Below, piece after piece: positions 7,549 to 44,281 of a DNA stretch of 47,988 nt (the stretch's first letter is position 1; every line of letters starts with the position of its first letter). Where the stretch lies: contig JAUCBJ010005121.1 in assembly GCA_032718475.1 (NCBI GenBank), positions 1 to 47,988 on the forward strand, written 5' to 3'. A program made the position numbers and the translations under genes. Under the pieces are notes generated by a model that saw only the letters and a list, made by a program, of their open reading frames with translations, searched no databases and had not been told where the DNA came from. The DNA is from Nemertoderma westbladi. Taxonomy: Eukaryota > Animalia > Xenacoelomorpha.

Positions 7549-8856
7549 ACTAGTACTACTAGGATCGGCATGCTGCATTGCAGCTGCATTTTTAAGAATG
7601 CTGTGCCGGCTTGTCAACAAAATTGCACCGCCACAACTCCCTATCACCCATGACATTTGCTAGATCATCCGCATCTTTAAGACCAGTGTCCTTTAAGATG
7701 CGTCTCAAGAAAGTCATGGGCTGTCCACCATGCTTATTCACTCCATGAGGCTGCCAAAGTACAAGATTATGCACTGGCTGGTCCTTACGGCGAAAGCAAT
7801 GTCCTGCAAAGCGGAGGCGATTTTGTTCTAGTGTCAAGCTTGGGGGAACCAATAAGACACCTCCAATGTTATATAGTGTCTGGTTGGAGATGTGTGCATT
7901 GTACTTGACACAATGAACCCGGCGTAGCATTCTTGTGAATGTGCCATCCAGAGATTTGGTGTCCTCAGCAGTTAGAGCCCAGCATGGACTCCCGTAGAGG
8001 AGTACTGGAACTACTGCTGCTCTAAATAATCGGACCTTAAGTTTCCGATTAATTCTCGGTGACTTCCAAATCCTGGAAAGCCTATTCAAGGCTGCCCATG
8101 CTTTTCCCTTACGTATTCGAAGGTCCTCACCTGACTTCCGGATCCATGATCCCAGGTAACAGAAGTCGTCGACATGCTCAAGCATACCATCCTTTGAGCT
8201 TATGCTCATCCGATCAGAGACTTGCTGAGGACTTTCAAAGTTAACTGTCAGAATTTTGGTCTTTCTGGAGTTAATAAAAAGACCAACACTAGAAGCAGCA
8301 TGTTCTAATGAGCTGAGGAGCCGTTGGGCTCCCTCTAATGATTCTGAGAGTACTCCTAAGTCATCAGCAAAGTCTAGATCAGTTAGGTACTTGGCAGGAT
8401 TTCCTCGACTTCTGGAGCCAGTAGGTGGAGTTATCATCACCCCATCATCATTATGATGATCTAAGGACATGCGTAGAACATAGTCAACCACAATAATGAA
8501 TAAGAATGGTGCAAGTGTGTCTCCTTGGAGGACGCCCCATAACACTTCGAATGGTTCTGTGTCACCGTCAACAGTAGACACAAATGTTGTCGAACCATCG
8601 TATACTGATCTGATTGCTGCAATAATTTCATCAGGAATCCCATATAATGAAAGTATGCTGAACATACGTGAGCGAGAGACTGAATCAAAGGCCTTGAAGA
8701 AGTCAACAAAGATAACAGCCAGATGCCTGTCTTTCTTTTTTGATAATTCTTCAATTATCCTTCTAAGTGCCAAAATGGGCTCCATGGTCCCACGACCTTT
8801 ACGGAACCCATTCTGATTTCCACGGAGCAGTCTCTCAATGGGATCCCTGATGCGAT
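7549..8856 (-). mobile_element. 5'-truncated RTE-clade LINE (family RTE-B) inserted in Pao-2 integrase
   Basis: 14-bp TSD tatttgtgaatggt (7535-7548, 8857-8870). RT motifs QNGFR, DFFKAFDS, GVLQGDTLAP, FADD. (TAG)n-type tail. Confidence 0.95.
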
Positions 8857-11800
8857 TATTTGTGAATGGTGGGACTTGCTCAAGCCTATCTTTGGGCAGA
8901 TCAGCCATTTGCTGGGATCCAAGTTTACCTATCATCATTTGGCAGAGGATACAGTTCTTAATGAAATCCTTGATGAGAGTTTGTGCCTTCATGAGATGAA
9001 ACCATGCACTACGGATGGCTCCATGAGTAAGATGTCTTCCCTGATGTCCTACATGACGATGGAAGTGATCTAGCAAAACTTCTGCTAGGGGGTGTTTCTC
9101 TGGTATCAGACAGGGGTGTTGAGCATCAAAAGGGATATCTGCCCTTCTAATTCGACCACCAACCAGAGGTGTACCATTTGCGTTCAAGAAAGGTGCCAAC
9201 TCTGCAATTGGATGTGATTCTGGAATGTGCCTTCCAGCTCTAAGCTCTCGCAGGATATCAGGATAGCAATCCTTCTGAGCATCCTGTACTAACACTTCCT
9301 CTGCATCAGAGATAAAAATAGGTGAGTTCATACATGTTGAACTGATAGTTTTAGATGGGTCCTTTTTGATTCGGATTCTCCTGAGGAGCATTCTACAAAA
9401 CTTTAGGACCATTTATCTATGACCATCTATGACAACTTCAGGTAGATCTTTCAAATCCAAAACACTATTCTCTGAACCAGCTTTGACCAAATGTATGGGA
9501 GAGTATTCTGCTCAGTAAATCAGGGCCTTCCTAGCAACTTAGAAGAACTCAAAGAAATAGGATCAGCTGGTCTTGATGCAATATCTGCCGGGTTCAAACT
9601 AGATGGTATATAATTCCACTGAATTGGCATACTAAATACTAATCTTACAAATTATGTGGATTCGCCGTGAGATATATCTGCTAAAACGAGCCTTTGAATT
9701 TGTTACATAGCCTAATATTACCATACTATCAGAGTAGTAGTAGATATTATGTGGTTTTTGATGTAGAGCATAATCAACTTGTTCTACTGGCCACTGTAGC
9801 TTCTACTGCAGCGCAAAGTTCCAACCTAGGTATGGATGTCCCACTCTGTGGTGTTACCTTTGAGTTACCAGTCACAAAACCCACAGATACTTCTCCACTT
9901 TCATTGACTGATTTCATATAAATCACGTATCCAATACCTTTATCGGACACATCACAAAAAACATAGAGATCTTGCAATGTACAGACTCCAAAATATAGTG
10001 GACAGAATGGGCGAGGAATATGGAGTCGATCCAGTGCCACTAAAGATAGTAGCCAGTCATCCCACTCCTTCCGGAAACGCATGGGAAGTTCCTTATCCCA
10101 TCCACAACTTTCTAGCTCTTCACACGAATCTGCTTTCCTTGGTAAATAGAACATTGTATTATCCGTCCAGCTTGGACAACAGGACTTGCTACACATATTG
10201 GATTAAATATTGAATTTATAGTTGAGAGTACCCCTCTCCTAGTAAAAGGTTTTTGTGGGATATCAATTTTGAGAATAAAGCAATCCAATCCTGTATCCTA
10301 TGTAACCCCAAATGTCCGTTGTAGATTGGACTCACTTATCTGAACACTCATGGGATCACTTGCACATTCTGAAGGTGGAAATGCTGTTAACACATCCACA
10401 TGGCTTGATGCAATCTTATGTAGTCGGATATGGAATTGTAAAAGAGTTTGGATAGACCCTTGTAAGACTGATACTGCATCTTGGATACTATCATGACCTA
10501 CTATAACTGTTATAACTGTTATAGTAGGTCATGATACTATCATTACTTCCTAAACCATCATCTACGTAGATACTGTCTCTAATATACTGTACTACCTCTT
10601 GAGATGGGATAGGGTCACTTATTTCCAAGGTATGACGTAGACTGGTACTGTAGTTGCTATGCAAAGACTAAGGCTATTTCCGAATAAATGCACATTGCTT
10701 CAGTAAGCAACTCGTGGTTTCATTGTATCATTTCCATCAAACCAATAAAACCTTAAGAAATTACGGTGGTCTGGATCCACATGGAAACAATAGAACATTG
10801 CTTCCATATCTGCACTGAATCCCACAGCTCCTTCTCAAAATCTTATCAATACATCTCTCATACAATTATTATCATCGGGACCTTGTATCAGTTGCTCATT
10901 AAGACTAGTTCAAAAATACTTTGCAGAACTATCAAATACGAGAGTCGCACACTGATCTTACGCTCCTCAGACACAGGAAATAAGGGTATGTACCACACTT
11001 TTCCAGGTGAACCTTTGAGTTCATTGTAGGGAACTCTTTCGAACTTATTAGTATTGGAATACTTCCCCATTGAGGTAATGCACTTATCCATTTTCACTGG
11101 GTCCATTTTCAACTTATTAGCTTAGTTTGATGTTCTTTTATAAACAGCATTAGAGTTATCTGGAAAGATCGGGTTTTCCTTATAGAAACGAAGAGGGACT
11201 TGGATCCAGCCATCACCATTTATCTTAATATTTGGTATTATCCTTTTCTCAAATAGAAGATCATCCTGTGATTTCCCAGTTAATTCACCATCAGAGAGGT
11301 TTAAGAAAGGGTTGTTTTTAATCATGCTCACTGACTCAGGAAGAGAATGGTATCTACACTTTCTAAAGGTTGGCACACTCTCCAGGTGGTTATCTGAACA
11401 TATATGCAGTGTGGTAGATGTGGATGATTTGCGGGTAGAATGGGGACATGTTTGGCTAACAATTTCCCACCCTAAAGGTTTCTTATGTAAGAATTGGTGG
11501 TATACTACCATAGGTTTTTGTGGGAAGTAATTCACTACAATCACGACCAAGGAGAGTGAGTGTTTCAGCTAAATCATCTCTTACTGGAAACCTACTTGCA
11601 TAGTTTTGGATATGTGGGAGACTTTTTATTATTTCAGGAGTAGCAATATAATTTCTTGCTTCAGGAATCCCCGCATTTGTATACAGTGGTGGAAGATAGA
11701 AGCTTCTAGATTCGGTAACCCCTTTAATTTCTAGACCTTCAACTATCATACCTGAAACCTGGAACTGTAACTATGTTAAAGTTGAAATCGTGTAATCATA

Positions 11801-23962: not shown

Positions 23963-24748
23963 CTACTACTAGGATCGGCATGCTGCATTGCAGCTGCATT
24001 TTCAAGAATGCTGTGCCGGCTTGTCAACAAAATTGCACCGCCACAACTCCCTATCACCCATGACATTTGCTAGATCATCCGCATCTTTAAGGCCAGTGTC
24101 CTTTAAGATGCGTCTCAAGAAAGTCATGGGCTGTCCACCATGCTTATTCACTCCATGAGGCTGCCAAAGTACAAGATTATGCACTGGCTGGTCCTCACGG
24201 CGAAAGCAATGTCCTGCAAAGCGGAGGCGATTTTGTTCTAGTGTCAAGCTTGGGGGAACCAATGAGACACCTCCAATGTTATATAGTGTCTGGTTGGAGA
24301 TGTGTGCATTGTACTTGACACAATGTACCCGGCGTAGCATTCTTGTGAATGTGCCATCCAGAGATTTGGTGTCCTCAGCAGTTAGAGCCCAGCATGGACT
24401 CCCGTAGAGGAGTACTGGAACTACTGCTGCTCTGAATAATCGGACCTTAAGTTTCCGATTAATTCTAGGTGACTTCCAAATCCTGGAAAGCCTATTCAAG
24501 GCTGCCCATGCCTTTCCCTTACGTATTCGAAGGTCCTCACCTGACTTCCGGATCCATGATCCCAGGTAACAGAAGTCGTCCACATGCTCAAGCATACCAT
24601 CCTTTGAGCTTATGCTCATCCGATCAGAGACTTGCTGAGGACTTTCAAAGTTAACTGTCAGAATTTTTGTCTTTCTGGAGTTAATAAAAAGACCAACACT
24701 AGAAGCAGCATGTTCTAATGAGCTGAGGAGCCGCTGGGCTCCCTCTGT
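23963..24748 (-). mobile_element. Second 5'-truncated RTE-B copy inserted in RTE-A
   Basis: 8-bp TSD tgtttgca (23955-23962, 24749-24756). Nearly identical to the 3' part of 7549-8856. Confidence 0.95.
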
Positions 24749-24855
24749 TGTTTGCAACCGGATGTTAAAAGGGGAAAAGCCACCACCAATTTGGACTAAA
24801 GGTCAACTAAAGCCTCTCCCCAAGAAAGGAGACCTCGGCATACCAACAAACTATC

Positions 24856-34452: not shown

Positions 34453-34625
34453 CTCGTACAACGGTTCTTCCCCGTCTGCCACACATTCGCATATCGGACA
34501 TCCCAACTCGTCCTCCTTCCATCCAAACAGACACTGATCTTCACACTCAGCCACTACAAAATCATTTACACAGGCATCCATACCCTTTCCTTTCAACGAT
34601 TCCATTTGTCTTTGCAGTTGATCCT
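34453..34625 (-). CDS. Host exon with an antistasin-like Cys module, ending ..EEPLYE
   Basis: Acceptor tttcag, donor gttcgt, 173 bp (phase 1 to 0). CEDQCLFGWKEDELGCPICEC fits C-x3-C-x2-G-x3-D-x2-GC-x2-C-x-C. Confidence 0.75.
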
Positions 34626-34763: not shown

Positions 34764-34813
34764 CGCAGGCTCCCTGATTTAAGACACAATGGTAGTGAGA
34801 TCGTTTACAATCA
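34764..34813 (-). CDS. Candidate small Cys-rich host exon (DCKRSHYHCVLNQGAC)
   Basis: tttatag acceptor and gtaggg donor. Ends in phase 1, compatible with the next exon across a 138-bp intron. Confidence 0.4.
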
Positions 34814-34923
34814 CTATAAATGAATTGGAGTTGAGCTGTTAATGCAACTGTAATTAAATATGTAATATTATGGTTTTGTTCAGAAATGGAAAAAATGAGA
34901 AAGCGCGTCACCGGGGGTTGAAC

Positions 34924-34971
34924 CAGCGCTATACGTACGTTTCAGCCTATCAGGCCTCATCAGTAGCACTA
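34924..34971 (-). ncRNA. Minimal type I hammerhead ribozyme (mirror copy)
   Basis: Same fold on the minus strand; one C-to-U change in stem I leaves a U-G wobble. Confidence 0.85.
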
Positions 34972-35055
34972 ACCAGTTCAGCCACTTGCCCTAGGATATG
35001 CAACTTAAGACTGCCTGTTCAATAGAAGTGGATTAGGTGGGAGGGTGAATGTCAG

Positions 35056-35157
35056 GGGCAAGTGGCTGAACTGGTTAGCGCTACTGATGAGGCCTGATAG
35101 GCTGAAACGTACGTATAGCGCTGGTTCAACCCCCAGTGACGCGCTTTCTCATTTTTT
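35056..35157 (+). promoter_or_regulatory. tRNA-type Pol III unit: A box, B box, T6 terminator (mirror at 34890-34991, minus strand)
   Basis: TGGCTGAACTGG (35063-35074) fits TRGCNNARYNNG, GGTTCAACCCC (35123-35133) fits GGTTCRANYCC, and TTTTTT lies at 35152-35157. Confidence 0.7.
35076..35123 (+). ncRNA. Minimal type I hammerhead ribozyme
   Basis: Stem I tagcgcta/tagcgctg, core CTGATGA, stem II ggcct-gat-aggct, GAA, palindromic stem III acgtacgt. Predicted cleavage after GUA at 35115. Confidence 0.88.
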
Positions 35158-36029
35158 CCATTTCTGAACAAAACCATAATATTTCAATCACTATAGGAAC
35201 AGGTTCCGTGTACCCAACAATCCGCTGACAACGTATAGATTTTCTATTGAATTTATAACGCAATCCATAATCTATGGTTGCCCTTAGCGACCAGATTTTT
35301 GCAAACTGTTGAACAAGTTTGCTAAAGATGGGGAAACATATCTAAATGGCTAGTTAAGTTATTCCTTTATTATACACAAACAAAGTTATTGATTCTCCTT
35401 ATAACACGACGTGCGTGTGGACTTCTCGCAGCACGGACTCAATATGAGTCTTATTGTTGCAGCACAATTTGTGGACTGTCCCCCTAGCGAGTCTGTCCGT
35501 GTGTAGAATTTCTAAACATTTGATAAACTACATGTGTTCCAAATTTGGTTCCATTTCTTCTATGATTATACTTATTTGCGTTCAAACATTTCCAACGATG
35601 ATAGAGGGTCGTCTAGTTATATCACTACGAAAAGGTGTTTCGCATTTGATAAAAAATATATTCTTTCAATCTCAATTTCATATATTTTGACTCTGTTGCA
35701 ACTATGCCGAAATCCCATGCAGGTGGACTTTAAATCGCTGGTCGGATACAAAATCGGACCCTCCCTGTGAAAATCGGACACTGTGGTGTGATGTTCTAGA
35801 ATATCGAAAAAAAATGAAGAGAGCTGCTGAACTGAAGATTTAAGAAGACGGTTAAACCGAGCCTGAATTTCACGTCAGGCAAACGAGACTTACCGCTGCG
35901 CCGGTACTTCACTTTCCGTTCACTAGTACCCAAGGTATTGTTCGTGGTAATTTCCTGCACATTTAAGTCCCGGGATCTTACCTCCAAAACCGGACCACAG
36001 TCTTTTTGAACCAAAATCGGATCCTCCCT

Positions 36030-39000
36030 CCGCGAATTCCTCCGCTTCCATGATCCTGATGGGTTTATGTGAATGGATGTAATTGATAGAAAGATCTTCT
36101 GAATGAATGTGATTCATTGAGATTTTGTCGCTTGTTCTTCTTTTGTTTAGGGTTTTTATGGATGGACCGGTACAGAACCATCCTATTCTGGTTCTAATAG
36201 CGTATGTTGTCAATGGTGGAGGGGAACTGGGGAATTTTTCCAGAATTTCCATAGCCTCAGGCGCATTCTGGCCGATTATTAATTGAACTCCTATGTCACT
36301 CGAGTTGGTATCTCGGTATATTATTGTTTTTTACAAAGCCATCGCTGTCCCAATCATACATACGGGCTTGGCTTTCCGCAAAATTCTTTATAGCTACCAT
36401 CTTGATATTATCCAGCTTGCATACATTATCGGTGTCTCCTGGATCAGACAGTGAGACCTTATAATAACGGGTTTGGATAACCAATTGCCAAATTTTCATT
36501 ACGCCTGAAAGATTTAGTTTCATAGGGTGTCTGTCATTCTAATCACATAGTTCGTCTGCAAGATCTTGGTCGATAAAAATCCCGAACTTCTGGTATCCAA
36601 CAAATCGTTTACTATAATGCTGTGGTTGTTATAATGTAGTCGAACTTGTAGAACGGGGAATTCGCGAACACCAGTCGATTTTGGGTTTGAAGTGGACTGT
36701 TATTGTTACTGTTATTATTGAAGCTGAGTTATTTGGTCATCTGATGTCTGCTCAAGAGTAGTTGGCGACTCATACGTGATTGCTTCGTATACCATTACTT
36801 TGTTGCAACTCTCCTCGTCACTGGACAATTCATCTGCATCAAATTCCTGTTCGGAACATCCCGAGGTATCGTAGGATGAATGATCAGTGAACTGAACTTT
36901 TGCTTCCATCTGTGGGACTATGTCTCTCAGATGCAATAGATAGTGATGGTTACCATTACATTTAACGTATTTATAAGTGTCTTTTAAATAGCATTTGCTT
37001 CTACTGTGTCCGGGACATAAGCACAGGAAACATACTCTCAGCGTGTTAACTGTCTCTCTTCGTTTTTCGAGTGATAATTTGATGAATTCCAGACACTGTG
37101 ATAATCTATGGGACTCTTTATTACATAGCAAACAGCCAGCGTAGGATACTGATTTGATAATCGGTTTGAGGGTTTTCACTTCAGAATGTTGGGTCTGTTG
37201 AGTTTTTACAGTTCGGATGGGGGCACGGTCACGTGAATGTCTATCAGACTGACACTTGCGTCTAGGGGATGGAGATCTAGGGTCCTTTCACTGTTGTGTC
37301 GTATGTTTGGTATTATCTGCGATGTGGTAGGAACTCTCACTTCCCTCAGATTCTTCTTCACACGTAGATAAATCTGTTTGGTAGACTCGTTCCCGACGTT
37401 AGGTTGAGGGGTTCTTATCGAGTTTCGGGTCTATGGTTGAGTAATCATGAGTAATAAAGATTCATAGTCGAGGTATTCTAAGAAATCCTTCATACTTAGT
37501 GCTGGTTTGTTGCGGAGTTATGCGTTTAGTATGTTGCAGTCCCATCGTGTGGATACACTGCCCTTGGGTAGGGCTGCAGAAATCATGCCAACAACAACCG
37601 GAGTGTCATAATATTCGTGTTTGTCCAACCAATCTAGTTGCCTACAGATTTCCTTAATCTCGTCAACAAATTCAATCATTTCCGTAGTTATTACACATTT
37701 ACGATTGACCAACTTTCAATACAGATATTAGGCTATTGAAGCTTCATCTCCGTACCTGGCATGTAACAGTTTCCATAGTTCTTTCAATCCCTGTGGGTGT
37801 CCGATATATCTTTGCTCTAATTTTTTCGGATAACCTTCCAAGCAGTCTATTAAGAAGCGCAGTTTCTCACTGTTGGGTAATGGTGAACTAAATATACTGT
37901 CTTTTACGTATTCTCTAAATGGAAGCCATTTTAACTCATTTCCATCAAATTTAATAATTTCACCCACTTTAACTGCCTGACGCGCTAATTGGCGGGTGAA
38001 ACTATCCTGGGCTATAGTACTATTAAACATAGTATTAAATGTAGAGTTATCACAGGGGCCTACATTGGTCTGGGGGGGGGGGGGTCTATAAAGATTGTTG
38101 ATATTTTGTGTGTAATTTTGTATCCCTGTGTTATACTCAGGGTTTCTAACATTGGGTGAGATAGGCGGGCGTGACATATTTTCAGCTTCAACGCCGTTTA
38201 TATTAGAGGCTCTCTTTAAGATTTGTTACTCAGGAGAGTCCGGGTTCCTGACCACTGCAGTGTTGTTCGAGGCCAGGAGAGTCCGGGTTCCTGACCACTG
38301 CAGTGTTGTTCGAGGCCAGGAGAGTCCGGGTTCCTGACCACTGCAGTGTTGTTCGAGGCCAGGAGAGTCCGGGTTCCTGACCACTGCAGTGTTGTTCGAG
38401 GCCAGGAGAGTCCGGGTTCCTGACCACTGCAGTGTTGTTCGAGGCCAGGAGAGTCCGGGTTCCTGACCACTGCAGTGTTGTTCGAGGCCAGGAGAGTCCG
38501 GGTTCCTGACCACTGCAGTGTTGTTCGAGGCCAGGAGAGTCCGGGTTCCTGACCACTGCAGTGTTGTTCGAGGCCAGGAGGTCCTGAGAATTAGCCAGCT
38601 TTTGGTGTAGCTCCTCCAGAACCTTGGTGGCCTGCACAGACTCACCCTGCAGCTCCTGCAAACGTCTATGGTGGATCTGCTCGCTGTTAGCGGCTTCGTC
38701 ATGCAACTGCTTTAAGTGCTGCTGTAGTTGTTGCCACTGCAGTTGCTGCTTTTCCAGTGCTAGCTGATTTTGTTCACTCACTATCTCTCATTGTTTATTT
38801 AATCGATTTAATTCAAAATCGATATTATTTAATTGTTTCATTTTATTATTTACTGCCTCCTGCATAGCTTGCAGATTTAATGAGGATTCGTTTAATCTTT
38901 CCCTATAAAGGGAGTCCTCATTCGCCCGGGCGACTCTCTCTTTCGCCCCAATGGGTCCGGCATCCCTTATCGACTCAACCGAGCCTCGATGATGGTCGAT

Positions 39001-42344: not shown

Positions 42345-42510
42345 TATTCAGGCAACTGCAGAACTACTGTACTGCACTGCTGTACTGTACCGGTACCGGG
42401 TATTGTAGAGCTGTATATACAGATATAGGTATAGGCAGATAGGCTCATCATAAATCGGACTTTCTGTCTTTTTATCTCGCCAGTCCTCACAATATTACAG
42501 TAGACTGTTA

Positions 42511-43605
42511 GTGATAATGGAAAATTTTAGATCATCCACTCCATTGAAAGACGTGGTTGAGCCATCTAACGATAGCTCATTTGTTGTTGCACTTTCGTCA
42601 GTGGAGGAATTTGAGGTGATACAACATGTCCAAAAGTTACCGCAGCCCGGCATGTTTTTAGCTACGGAACGTTTAATTAAGTTGTTGACTGAGCGACAAC
42701 CACGTCTGAAAAATATTCCAGCAATGACAAAGGACAATGTATTTATGTTACTTGACAACACTGTTAACCGTGAGCGACATGAAATGGGTTTAAAAAAACA
42801 AATTCTACGACAATTGCGGTTCGTGGAATAAGCCTTCACTAAAGCATTATTTTATGAAGAAAGGTGAAATATTCGTCTATACCGATGTTAAGGGTGGTCA
42901 GTTCTATGAAGGGCCAGTTAAAGATGGTGTGCTAATGAATCCGCAGCCAGAGAAGGGAGATCTACTTGTGTTATCCCGAATGTATTATAAACTCAAGATA
43001 TTGAAGAAATACGAAAAGCGTGTTTCATGGATTGACAGTTTTCCTTCCAATACTGAACCAGTGTTTCGAAATGTTGCCGTAATCGAGTATAACTGTATAA
43101 GGGAATATTTCCTACCTCTACCGGTACCTCAACCGAGCACGAGCAGGTAGGCCTACCCTGTCAGTCTCAATATGTGCGCACCTCACCGGCAGTTATTGAA
43201 CATGTGAAGGAAAGTCTTGAACGAAATGTTCCACCGAGAGAAATTTATCAGGATATGTTATTGAATGATTCGACTGAAGCACCCCGTAATATCAGACAAA
43301 TTTACAATGTAAAACAGACTGGGAAGGCAAAAACAGGGAATGCAACAAACAATCTTGCAGATGATATTCTCGAGGTTATATCATCTATAAATGAACACGA
43401 GTTTATTCAGACTGTTATTCACGAGAAAAACTCGCCTCCATTAATTATTCTATACAGTGATGTTCAGATGAAAGACATGAAATGTTTCCTTTCAACCGAT
43501 ACGGATTATCATTCAATTGTTGGAGTTGATAAAACTTTTAATTTGGGTCCCTGTTATGTTACTTCCTTAGTTTACAAGAACAATTATCTGATCCGAAAAG
43601 AGAGC
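42511..43605 (+). pseudogene. MULE-type transposase, frameshifted and truncated
   Basis: PPLIILYSDVQMKDM..IVGVDKTFNLGPCYVTSLVYKN (D-x-T-F first catalytic Asp context), split over three ORFs. Confidence 0.7.
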
Positions 43606-44281
43606 GGGGGATTCACCAGTCTTTTTGCGACCCCGGGATGCGTCCCCGGGATTGTTGAAAATACGCCAACTAGGACTCTTAGTATATTTTGCCGAGTATG
43701 GGGTATAACGAACTGTTGATGGGCTAAGACCGCATAAAGTGGTTCTGATCGACTGAAAAATTCGAACTAGTAAGTCTGTACGTAAGGTAAGTCAATAAAT
43801 AGCAGTTCGATACTTGGTTGAAGAAACGAAAGTACCCCACGATTCATCCAGAGACTATGTTGTGGATATTTTTCATGGACCAGTCGTACTTCTGCGCTTT
43901 AATTCCGTAAAACCAAGTATGAAAGTTAATTCGTCGGGAATAAAGTATTATTTCCTCCCACAAGGAAATAAATAATTTTATATGTTCCAATAATGGAAAT
44001 AGGAATAAGATAGGGGATAAAATGAGGCCTACAAGTGTAAATATACTATGAAGCCAAGCAATCAGATACCGGTAATTCACAGTAGGCAGACTTGCAGTAA
44101 AATGTTTTACGGTAAATATGAGATTCCGTCTATTATCTGAACCGACCAATCTAGAATTATTGCCGCGGGAATTTACCTATTGTACCCGACTTACGGTAGA
44201 AAATGAACGTCTACGCCTTACAAGGTCCAACAACACACAGGGTGCTATAAGTTAATGTTCAAAACTCAAAAGTACGTGAAA

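Follow-up and report, generated by a model that had tools for sequence, protein, structure and literature searches.

The nearest precedent for the insertion described here, compared by description only, is the Sm-alpha/Sj-alpha group of Schistosoma, which, in the parts of the published accounts that were compared, joins a tRNA-related Pol III promoter to a canonical type I hammerhead ribozyme within a unit measuring a few hundred bp, the combination that we also find, with a putative promoter, at our locus (PMC6765202, PMC2770079, PMC8490949). According to the same portions of those accounts, cutting of Sm-alpha parts the promoter from the start of the unit, hence tandem copies are needed, as would be the case here; the promoter of Sm-alpha precedes the ribozyme (a layout taken from a review legend), whereas here the ribozyme lies between the promoter boxes and the boxes form a predicted helix (PMC6765202, PMC2770079). 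Metazoan non-LTR retrozymes, whose size range of 170–400 nt accommodates our unit of about 237 nt, share with it, in the sections compared, a non-coding unit, a canonical type I hammerhead and a palindromic loop III, together with a self-paired RNA (predicted in our case) and a proposed dependence on Penelope-like elements (PLEs); no tRNA-type promoter is mentioned in those descriptions (PMC7229834; bioRxiv 10.64898/2026.07.22.740005). As defined in the passages compared, retrozymes are tandem arrays, whereas the present locus is an inverted pair (PMC7229834, PMC7761336, PMC11722881), and monomers are known as derivatives. Evidence on the retrozyme life cycle is limited (bioRxiv 10.64898/2026.07.22.740005).

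PLE insertions, as described in the relevant parts of PMC8557442 and PMC3846280, carry an inverted 5′-truncated copy, mostly head to head, with a 30–40-bp tail at one end, target duplications of 8–10 bp and palindromes at the junction. Hammerheads lying 100–700 bp apart on opposite strands were recognised in 2014 as truncated PLEs (PMC4209133). For the anole PLE, the purified protein nicks and extends both strands, reverse transcription starts at two internal AC-rich sites, the interval between them being the tail, and mainly uncut RNA is used (PMC11167929). As far as the compared portions of the papers describe them, EN+ PLEs (Adineta Pen2a and Pen3a, PMC3846280 and PMC8557442; anole PAc, PMC11167929) resemble our insertion in having head-to-head copies, one of them 5′-truncated, a tail at one end, a target duplication, a junction palindrome and a type I hammerhead upstream of AC-rich ends. 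They differ in that our insertion has no ORF, a longer tail and duplication, and a canonical rather than a minimal hammerhead; the pLTR promoter of Pen2a is given in that source as a TATA/Inr type (PMC3846280), whereas here we find tRNA-type boxes. tRNA-derived SINEs, in the part of PMC8969392 compared, are likewise short and non-coding with boxes of tRNA origin, but their boxes are spaced by 30–35 nt rather than the 48 nt found here, and, unlike them, our unit has its putative promoter 64 nt inside the unit, inverted ends, and no A-rich or LINE-type tail.

The window analysed is a stretch of 47,988 nucleotides from Nemertoderma westbladi (contig JAUCBJ010005121.1), and all coordinates refer to it. 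The whole unit is a single 366-bp insertion (34819–35184) inside an 11-bp target-site duplication; an 11-bp repeat in the same geometry occurred at 0 of 6427 control positions. Along the insertion lie a 45-bp tail, the left arm, 64 bp, the right arm and one extra T. The two inverted arms, 128 bp each and 64 bp apart (34864–34991 and 35056–35183), mismatch at only 2 of 128 positions, the pairs 34968/35079 and 34912/35135, and both differences are CpG-type transitions after which the predicted pairs survive as G-U. Each arm comprises, in order, 7 nt, an A box, a type I hammerhead, a B box and a T6 run. The features of the locus are as follows:

34453–34625, minus strand: antistasin-domain host exon (Pfam PF02822, E 5.6e-6, clearing the cut-off), bounded by AG and GT and phase-compatible with the interrupted exon
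34764–34818, minus strand: likely host exon, downstream piece, Cys-rich, in register with the upstream piece, with a candidate GT donor after 34764
34808–34818: target-site duplication, left copy, 11 bp, identical to 35185–35195
34819–34863, minus strand: one-sided 45-bp tail of PLE type, prolonging the 3′ end of the left copy, between the arm end and the duplication
34864–34991, minus strand: left copy, inverted and 5′-truncated at the tRNA +1 position
34914–34924, minus strand: left B box
34925–34970, minus strand: left hammerhead, mirror of that in the right arm, cut predicted at 34932/34931
34973–34984, minus strand: left A box
34990–34995: 6-bp palindrome in the sequence of the inverted junction, short enough to be due to chance
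34992–35055, plus strand: the "spacer", 5′ part of the right copy, with predicted pairing of 35023–35054 to 35137–35166
35056–35183, plus strand: right arm, remainder of the right copy, with the extra T at 35184
35063–35081, plus strand: tRNA D-arm-like stretch (tRNA positions 8–25) containing the A box at 35063–35074 and predicted to supply the 5′ strand of helix I in the hammerhead
35077–35122, plus strand: type I hammerhead of the right arm, core from 35084, cut predicted at 35115/35116
35123–35133, plus strand: B box, within a hairpin that resembles a T arm and carries an additional C, or alternatively paired with the A box
35152–35157, plus strand: T6 run, Pol III terminator-like, inside the predicted rod
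35185–35195: target-site duplication, right copy, 11 bp, identical to the left copy
35196–35243, minus strand: likely host coding exon, upstream piece, 16 open codons after AG

The duplication, the tail, the unequal copies, the boxes and the ribozyme core are read directly from the sequence, while the rod and the A:B helix discussed below come from prediction, and all inference is drawn from this one insertion. Within the 48-kb window, hammerhead folds and A/B-box pairs occur only in these two arms, and windows simulated with an order-3 Markov model yielded them in 0 of 300 and 0 of 200 cases, respectively. This confirms the arm architecture given in a preliminary description of the locus, whose statement that arm symmetry starts 7 nt before the A box, at the tRNA +1 position, also agrees with the coordinates; that description did not include the 11-bp duplication, the 45-bp tail at one end or the predicted pairing between spacer and right arm. 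With two differences per 128 bp and a perfect duplication, the sequence indicates a young event. The termini of the insertion are not inverted repeats: the left arm begins 45 bp inside the duplication, so that inverted repeats do not abut both duplication copies. No head-to-tail tandem copies of the unit were found within the 48-kb window.

All features of a PLE-type insertion are present (head-to-head unequal copies, a one-sided tail, a target duplication), with the 45-bp tail and the 11-bp duplication slightly above the PLE ranges of 30–40 and 8–10 bp. The two 3′ ends lie 68–69 and 113 nt after the predicted cut, and the 20 nt at each end are 65–70% A+C, both ending in ATT; an ATT, the preferred motif, adjoins only one of the two inferred nicks, which counts against the comparison. 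Judged by this anatomy, a PLE-type insertion is very probable indeed, and the link to Penelope reverse transcriptase proposed in the preliminary description is likely, given the target duplication, the one-sided tail and the head-to-head layout. The unit itself is probably non-autonomous: no ORF with a reverse transcriptase and GIY-YIG endonuclease exists inside the 366 bp, the frame opened by the ATG of the hammerhead core closes after 26 codons, and no GIY-YIG domain was found in the 24 scanned of the 40 long frames in the window. An A-rich, simple-repeat or LINE-derived 3′ tail is absent, the ends being unique sequence, and no match of at least 30 nt links the ends of the insertion to the LINE ends of the window.

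The 64 bp between the arms, which had been taken as a neutral spacer from which two cassettes point outward, are predicted to pair with the right arm only. For the segment 34992–35184, a single 193-nt rod tipped by the ribozyme is predicted, at −65.0 kcal/mol and z −3.25; a shuffled sequence did as well in 1 of 300 cases. On the opposite strand, the spacer in reverse together with the left arm gives no rod (z +1.84), and an arm alone folds like its shuffles (z 0.04 and 0.19). A duplex between the spacer and the 3′ arm as good as the natural one arose in 4 of 2000 shuffles (918 of 2000 for the antisense), and none of 2368 natural 64-mers paired as well, although the best came close (−36.8 vs −37.5). 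In this duplex, 28 pairs are formed, 9 of them G-U and none A-C, and the irregularities are two U-U mismatches and a 2-nt bulge; such a one-strand G-U bias in the predicted pairing points to a process acting on RNA. By this model, the spacer is a structural part of the right copy. Since it pairs with the right arm on one strand, the right copy would start 64 nt or more ahead of the tRNA +1 position, the left copy, head to head with this longer one, is inverted and 5′-truncated, and the unit, made up of spacer, arm and tail, measures at least 237 nt, within the 150–450 bp of a non-coding, self-paired retrozyme unit. The mobilised RNA thus extended past both the tRNA +1 position and T6, and the earlier proposal of a mobile RNA of about 100 nt does not hold, because both copies pass T6, with 26 and 71 nt of the insertion beyond it, and the right copy reaches 64 nt upstream of +1. 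Pairing between the tail and the spacer was rejected as proof of a closed circle, its energy not being significant (no better than chance, 296–744 of 2000 shuffles); an exact 8-bp tail–spacer helix also appeared in 38 of 3000 shuffles and is a hint only.

The hammerhead has a helix I of 6–7 bp, a helix II of 4–5 bp closed by a G-U pair, and a helix III of 2 bp with a 4-nt palindromic loop, in line with the canonical sizes (helix I 6 bp, helix II 4 bp, helix III 1–2 bp, palindromic loop). Under the definitions of PMC4209133, which separate the canonical class from the PLE minimal class with its long helix II, it is by its helix sizes a canonical metazoan type I hammerhead of retrozyme type, and not a "minimal" one as previously stated. 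The active fold lies 2.5 kcal/mol up in predicted energy. Through the palindrome of helix III, two molecules can dimerise (predicted, −9.8 to −11.8), but a transcript across both arms holds one ribozyme and its antisense, so that dimerisation could occur only in trans; among Xenopus dimers, 8 of 9 tested did not cut. In both arms the pair closing helix II is G-U at the conserved G10.1–C11.1, so that this copy may cut poorly, and its cleavage activity, as judged from sequence, is uncertain; the G-U pair is possibly due to CpG decay in the source copy. The U at position 1.7 and the A ending loop II presumably suit the tertiary contact of full-length hammerheads. The Rfam and tRNA checks proposed in the preliminary description gave no Rfam family at gathering score for the arms, the best hammerhead match being a weak one to Hammerhead_3 (19.7 bits, E 0.27), and ARAGORN called no tRNA in them. 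Rfam miRNA matches, far below gathering scores, were dismissed as artefacts of long hairpins, and the ARAGORN run with lowered thresholds was uninformative, as it called both arms but also 3–5 other stretches per 600 bp.

Between the A and B boxes, which point to a tRNA origin, the hammerhead occupies the place of the anticodon and variable arms. A 19-nt pattern of the A-box region, with two positions open and two degenerate and designed to resemble known tRNAs, matched at least 118 loci in viral contigs; among the matches listed, 97 were ARAGORN tRNAs, of the types Ile, Asp, Met, Asn, Gln and Lys, and the motif started at tRNA position 8 or one off. As many as 17 of the 19 positions in the region agree with D-arms of actual tRNAs, a level reached by 9 among the matches listed. 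At positions 12–13, the tRNAs among these matches have GC (88), AC (8) or GT (1), and never TG, the dinucleotide present in the arm, by which the D stem is broken and two Watson–Crick pairs with the B box are gained. The resulting A:B helix is predicted to be the outer helix I of the hammerhead, with a pair probability of 0.97–1.0 in the 193-nt RNA and 0.01 in the 102-nt RNA. The A box is complementary to the B region at 8 of 12 positions, so that the two boxes are not independent evidence. In the rod, T8, G18 and G19 stay unpaired and nevertheless fit the A-box consensus; no pairing joins the 5′ and 3′ acceptor strands, the acceptor stem and the D stem having been lost. Taken together, the box sequences make a tRNA origin highly likely, in support of the earlier reading of tRNA-derived boxes around a hammerhead at the site of the anticodon arm.

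Whether the boxes also act as a working Pol III promoter is a more balanced matter, and from the sequence we place it at even or slightly better. In favour of a working promoter, the left copy ends at +1, out of some 70 positions at which the A box would have been retained; against it, Pol III transcription would stop at T6, near +100, before reaching either 3′ end. The putative promoter stands at the 5′ end of the left copy, while the right copy extends 64 nt further upstream.

The explanation that we prefer, with roughly even odds of being correct in full, is a tRNA-derived, PLE-mobilised retrozyme present as head-to-head non-coding copies, which likely uses its boxes as a Pol III promoter. 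Pol III would transcribe tandem master copies and read through the T run, giving unit-length RNA, which is the weakest step of the scheme. This RNA, of at least 237 nt, would fold into a rod tipped by the ribozyme, with A box:B box pairing as outer helix I. A PLE protein would nick both target strands 11 bp apart, as suggested by PLE biochemistry (PMC11167929), and reverse transcription would start at the two internal AC-rich sites, which lie on the 3′ side of the cut at distances of 68–69 and 113 nt. Of the two cDNAs, the first would stop at +1 and the second would run 64 nt further, and both would be joined head to head. The predicted cut falls between the A and B boxes and both copies span it intact, so the template would have been uncut, re-ligated or circular RNA; because cutting separates A from B, only such RNA could transmit a working promoter. 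A more specific version holds that a tRNA gene was rebuilt as a ribozyme, its D and T arms re-paired as helix I while still serving as a Pol III promoter, and that the family is a Pol III-driven circular-RNA SINE using Penelope enzymes; we offer this only tentatively.

Several alternatives were weighed against this PLE-mobilised retrozyme with a Pol III promoter. The same element might instead retain its tRNA remnant only as helix I, with Pol II reading the unit from neighbouring promoters; such an arrangement would suit the T6 within the unit, the loss of the acceptor and D stems, the pairing of both boxes in the rod and the view that retrozymes arise by read-through transcription, but it leaves the left-copy end at +1 and the fit of the unpaired T8, G18 and G19 to the A-box consensus unaccounted for, and we consider it rather unlikely. 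Still less likely, in our assessment, is a back-to-back pair of 5′-truncated pLTRs from an autonomous PLE that by chance has a tRNA-type promoter in its pLTR. The insertion signature would be identical, opposite-strand hammerheads at such distances are known from truncated PLEs (PMC4209133), and an intron could reopen the frame, AG sites being present in the tail; however, the frame from the core ATG, where the anole PLE ORF starts (PMC11167929), has only 26 codons, the tail lacks an ATG, helix II of the hammerhead is not the long one seen in minimal PLE motifs, and the entire 193 nt are predicted as one rod.

Two independent Pol III cassettes of about 100 nt, cut to 60 and 42 nt and mobile around a neutral spacer, are highly improbable, even though the symmetry begins at +1, T6 follows the B box and this copy may well make such short RNAs. 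The insertion includes DNA beyond T6 and 64 nt upstream of +1, and a spacer pairing with one arm only contradicts the cassettes as template. Fold-back and Mutator-type miniature elements have long inverted ends and 9–11-bp duplications. A DNA element of that kind, or a PLE insertion that picked up a tRNA fragment on a single occasion, would accommodate the 128-bp inverted arms, the 11-bp duplication, the short centre and the single copy in the window, but we judge it improbable: the left arm lies 45 bp inside the duplication, the termini carry no inverted repeats, the one-strand G-U bias suggests selection on RNA, and tRNA parts interlocked with a ribozyme are unexpected from a one-off capture.

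The layout had been presented as unfamiliar from described families, a claim that stands only in part. The head-to-head arrangement is already known, an inverted pair being the usual PLE form with its hammerheads noted in 2014, and the new feature is the hammerhead interlocked between the boxes, of which our literature search of titles and abstract starts found no description; the supplements of PMC7229834 and PMC4209133 contain retrozyme sequences, possibly including relatives. The parts of PMC10886601 and PMC8969392 that give the SINE consensus contain nothing on a ribozyme-between-boxes layout. A hammerhead core followed by a B box was found at 1 locus in prokaryote genomes, with only weak Rfam matches to bacterial sRNAs, at 0 in viral contigs and at 15 in metagenomes, of which 11 are chance matches and 4 share an unrelated leader; these collections contain little animal DNA and are silent on copy number. 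The four metagenome contigs with that leader (L003, L005, L007 and L011) have their first ~125 nt in common; from a single point onward, each continues into different genes, which have introns and a fungal appearance, and the shared stretch is likely the terminus of a repeated mobile element. Within the leader, Rfam Hammerhead_3 (27.6 bits, E 0.009) recognises a hammerhead of type III, whose helix I/loop I includes an A-box-like motif, and a hairpin 65 nt further on carries a complete B box. The B box, and not the A box, was partly selected by the search pattern; the active fold of the hammerhead lies 10 kcal/mol above the minimum. It is a possible independent case, by sequence, of a hammerhead between tRNA boxes, and hints that the design arose more than once.

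The insertion likely interrupts a host coding exon, apparently the nearest one upstream of the antistasin exon, as the reading frames on either side suggest; no homologue of the host protein was found by homology or atlas search. The left copy lies in the sense orientation of the antistasin-domain gene, which would allow the hammerhead of that copy to cleave the pre-mRNA. The window as a whole is repeat-rich animal DNA, with LINE frames (AP endonuclease and reverse transcriptase) and pieces of Gypsy and Pao/BEL elements. Between 11400 and 33800 lie nested Pao/BEL-like and LINE blocks of 98–100% identity, spaced by about 3.2, 6.8 and 12.7 kb, which reflect either a recent segmental duplication or an assembly duplication. 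A second LINE reverse transcriptase family (7592–9412 and 24002–24802, minus strand) sits inside a Pao-like integrase and forms a fused 606-codon frame, and a perfect 43-bp tandem array of 8.3 copies (38231–38584) occupies a Pao/BEL gag-like region. The segment 41245–42344 resembles a non-autonomous DNA transposon, having inverted ends of 59 bp and, at either end, many CTACGCGTAG units, which are 10-bp palindromes; beside it, 42454–43719 (plus strand) has frames of 125 and 208 codons with no Pfam match, possibly from a decayed transposase. At 1839–2424, 54-bp inverted repeats lie 478 bp apart in a MITE-like arrangement.

The dependence of animal retrozymes on PLEs rests on shared ribozymes, co-occurrence and pLTR homology, and the in vitro PLE assay that already exists could readily take as substrate a retrozyme-type unit bearing the full PLE signature. 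If the reading of a tRNA gene rebuilt as a ribozyme is true, the insertion would be direct anatomical proof that PLEs move retrozymes. Retrozyme transcription is unsettled, and a Pol III promoter that lies inside the unit and interlocks with the ribozyme would be a testable answer, and an unusual case of the same sequence serving as both a DNA promoter and the scaffold of an RNA catalyst.
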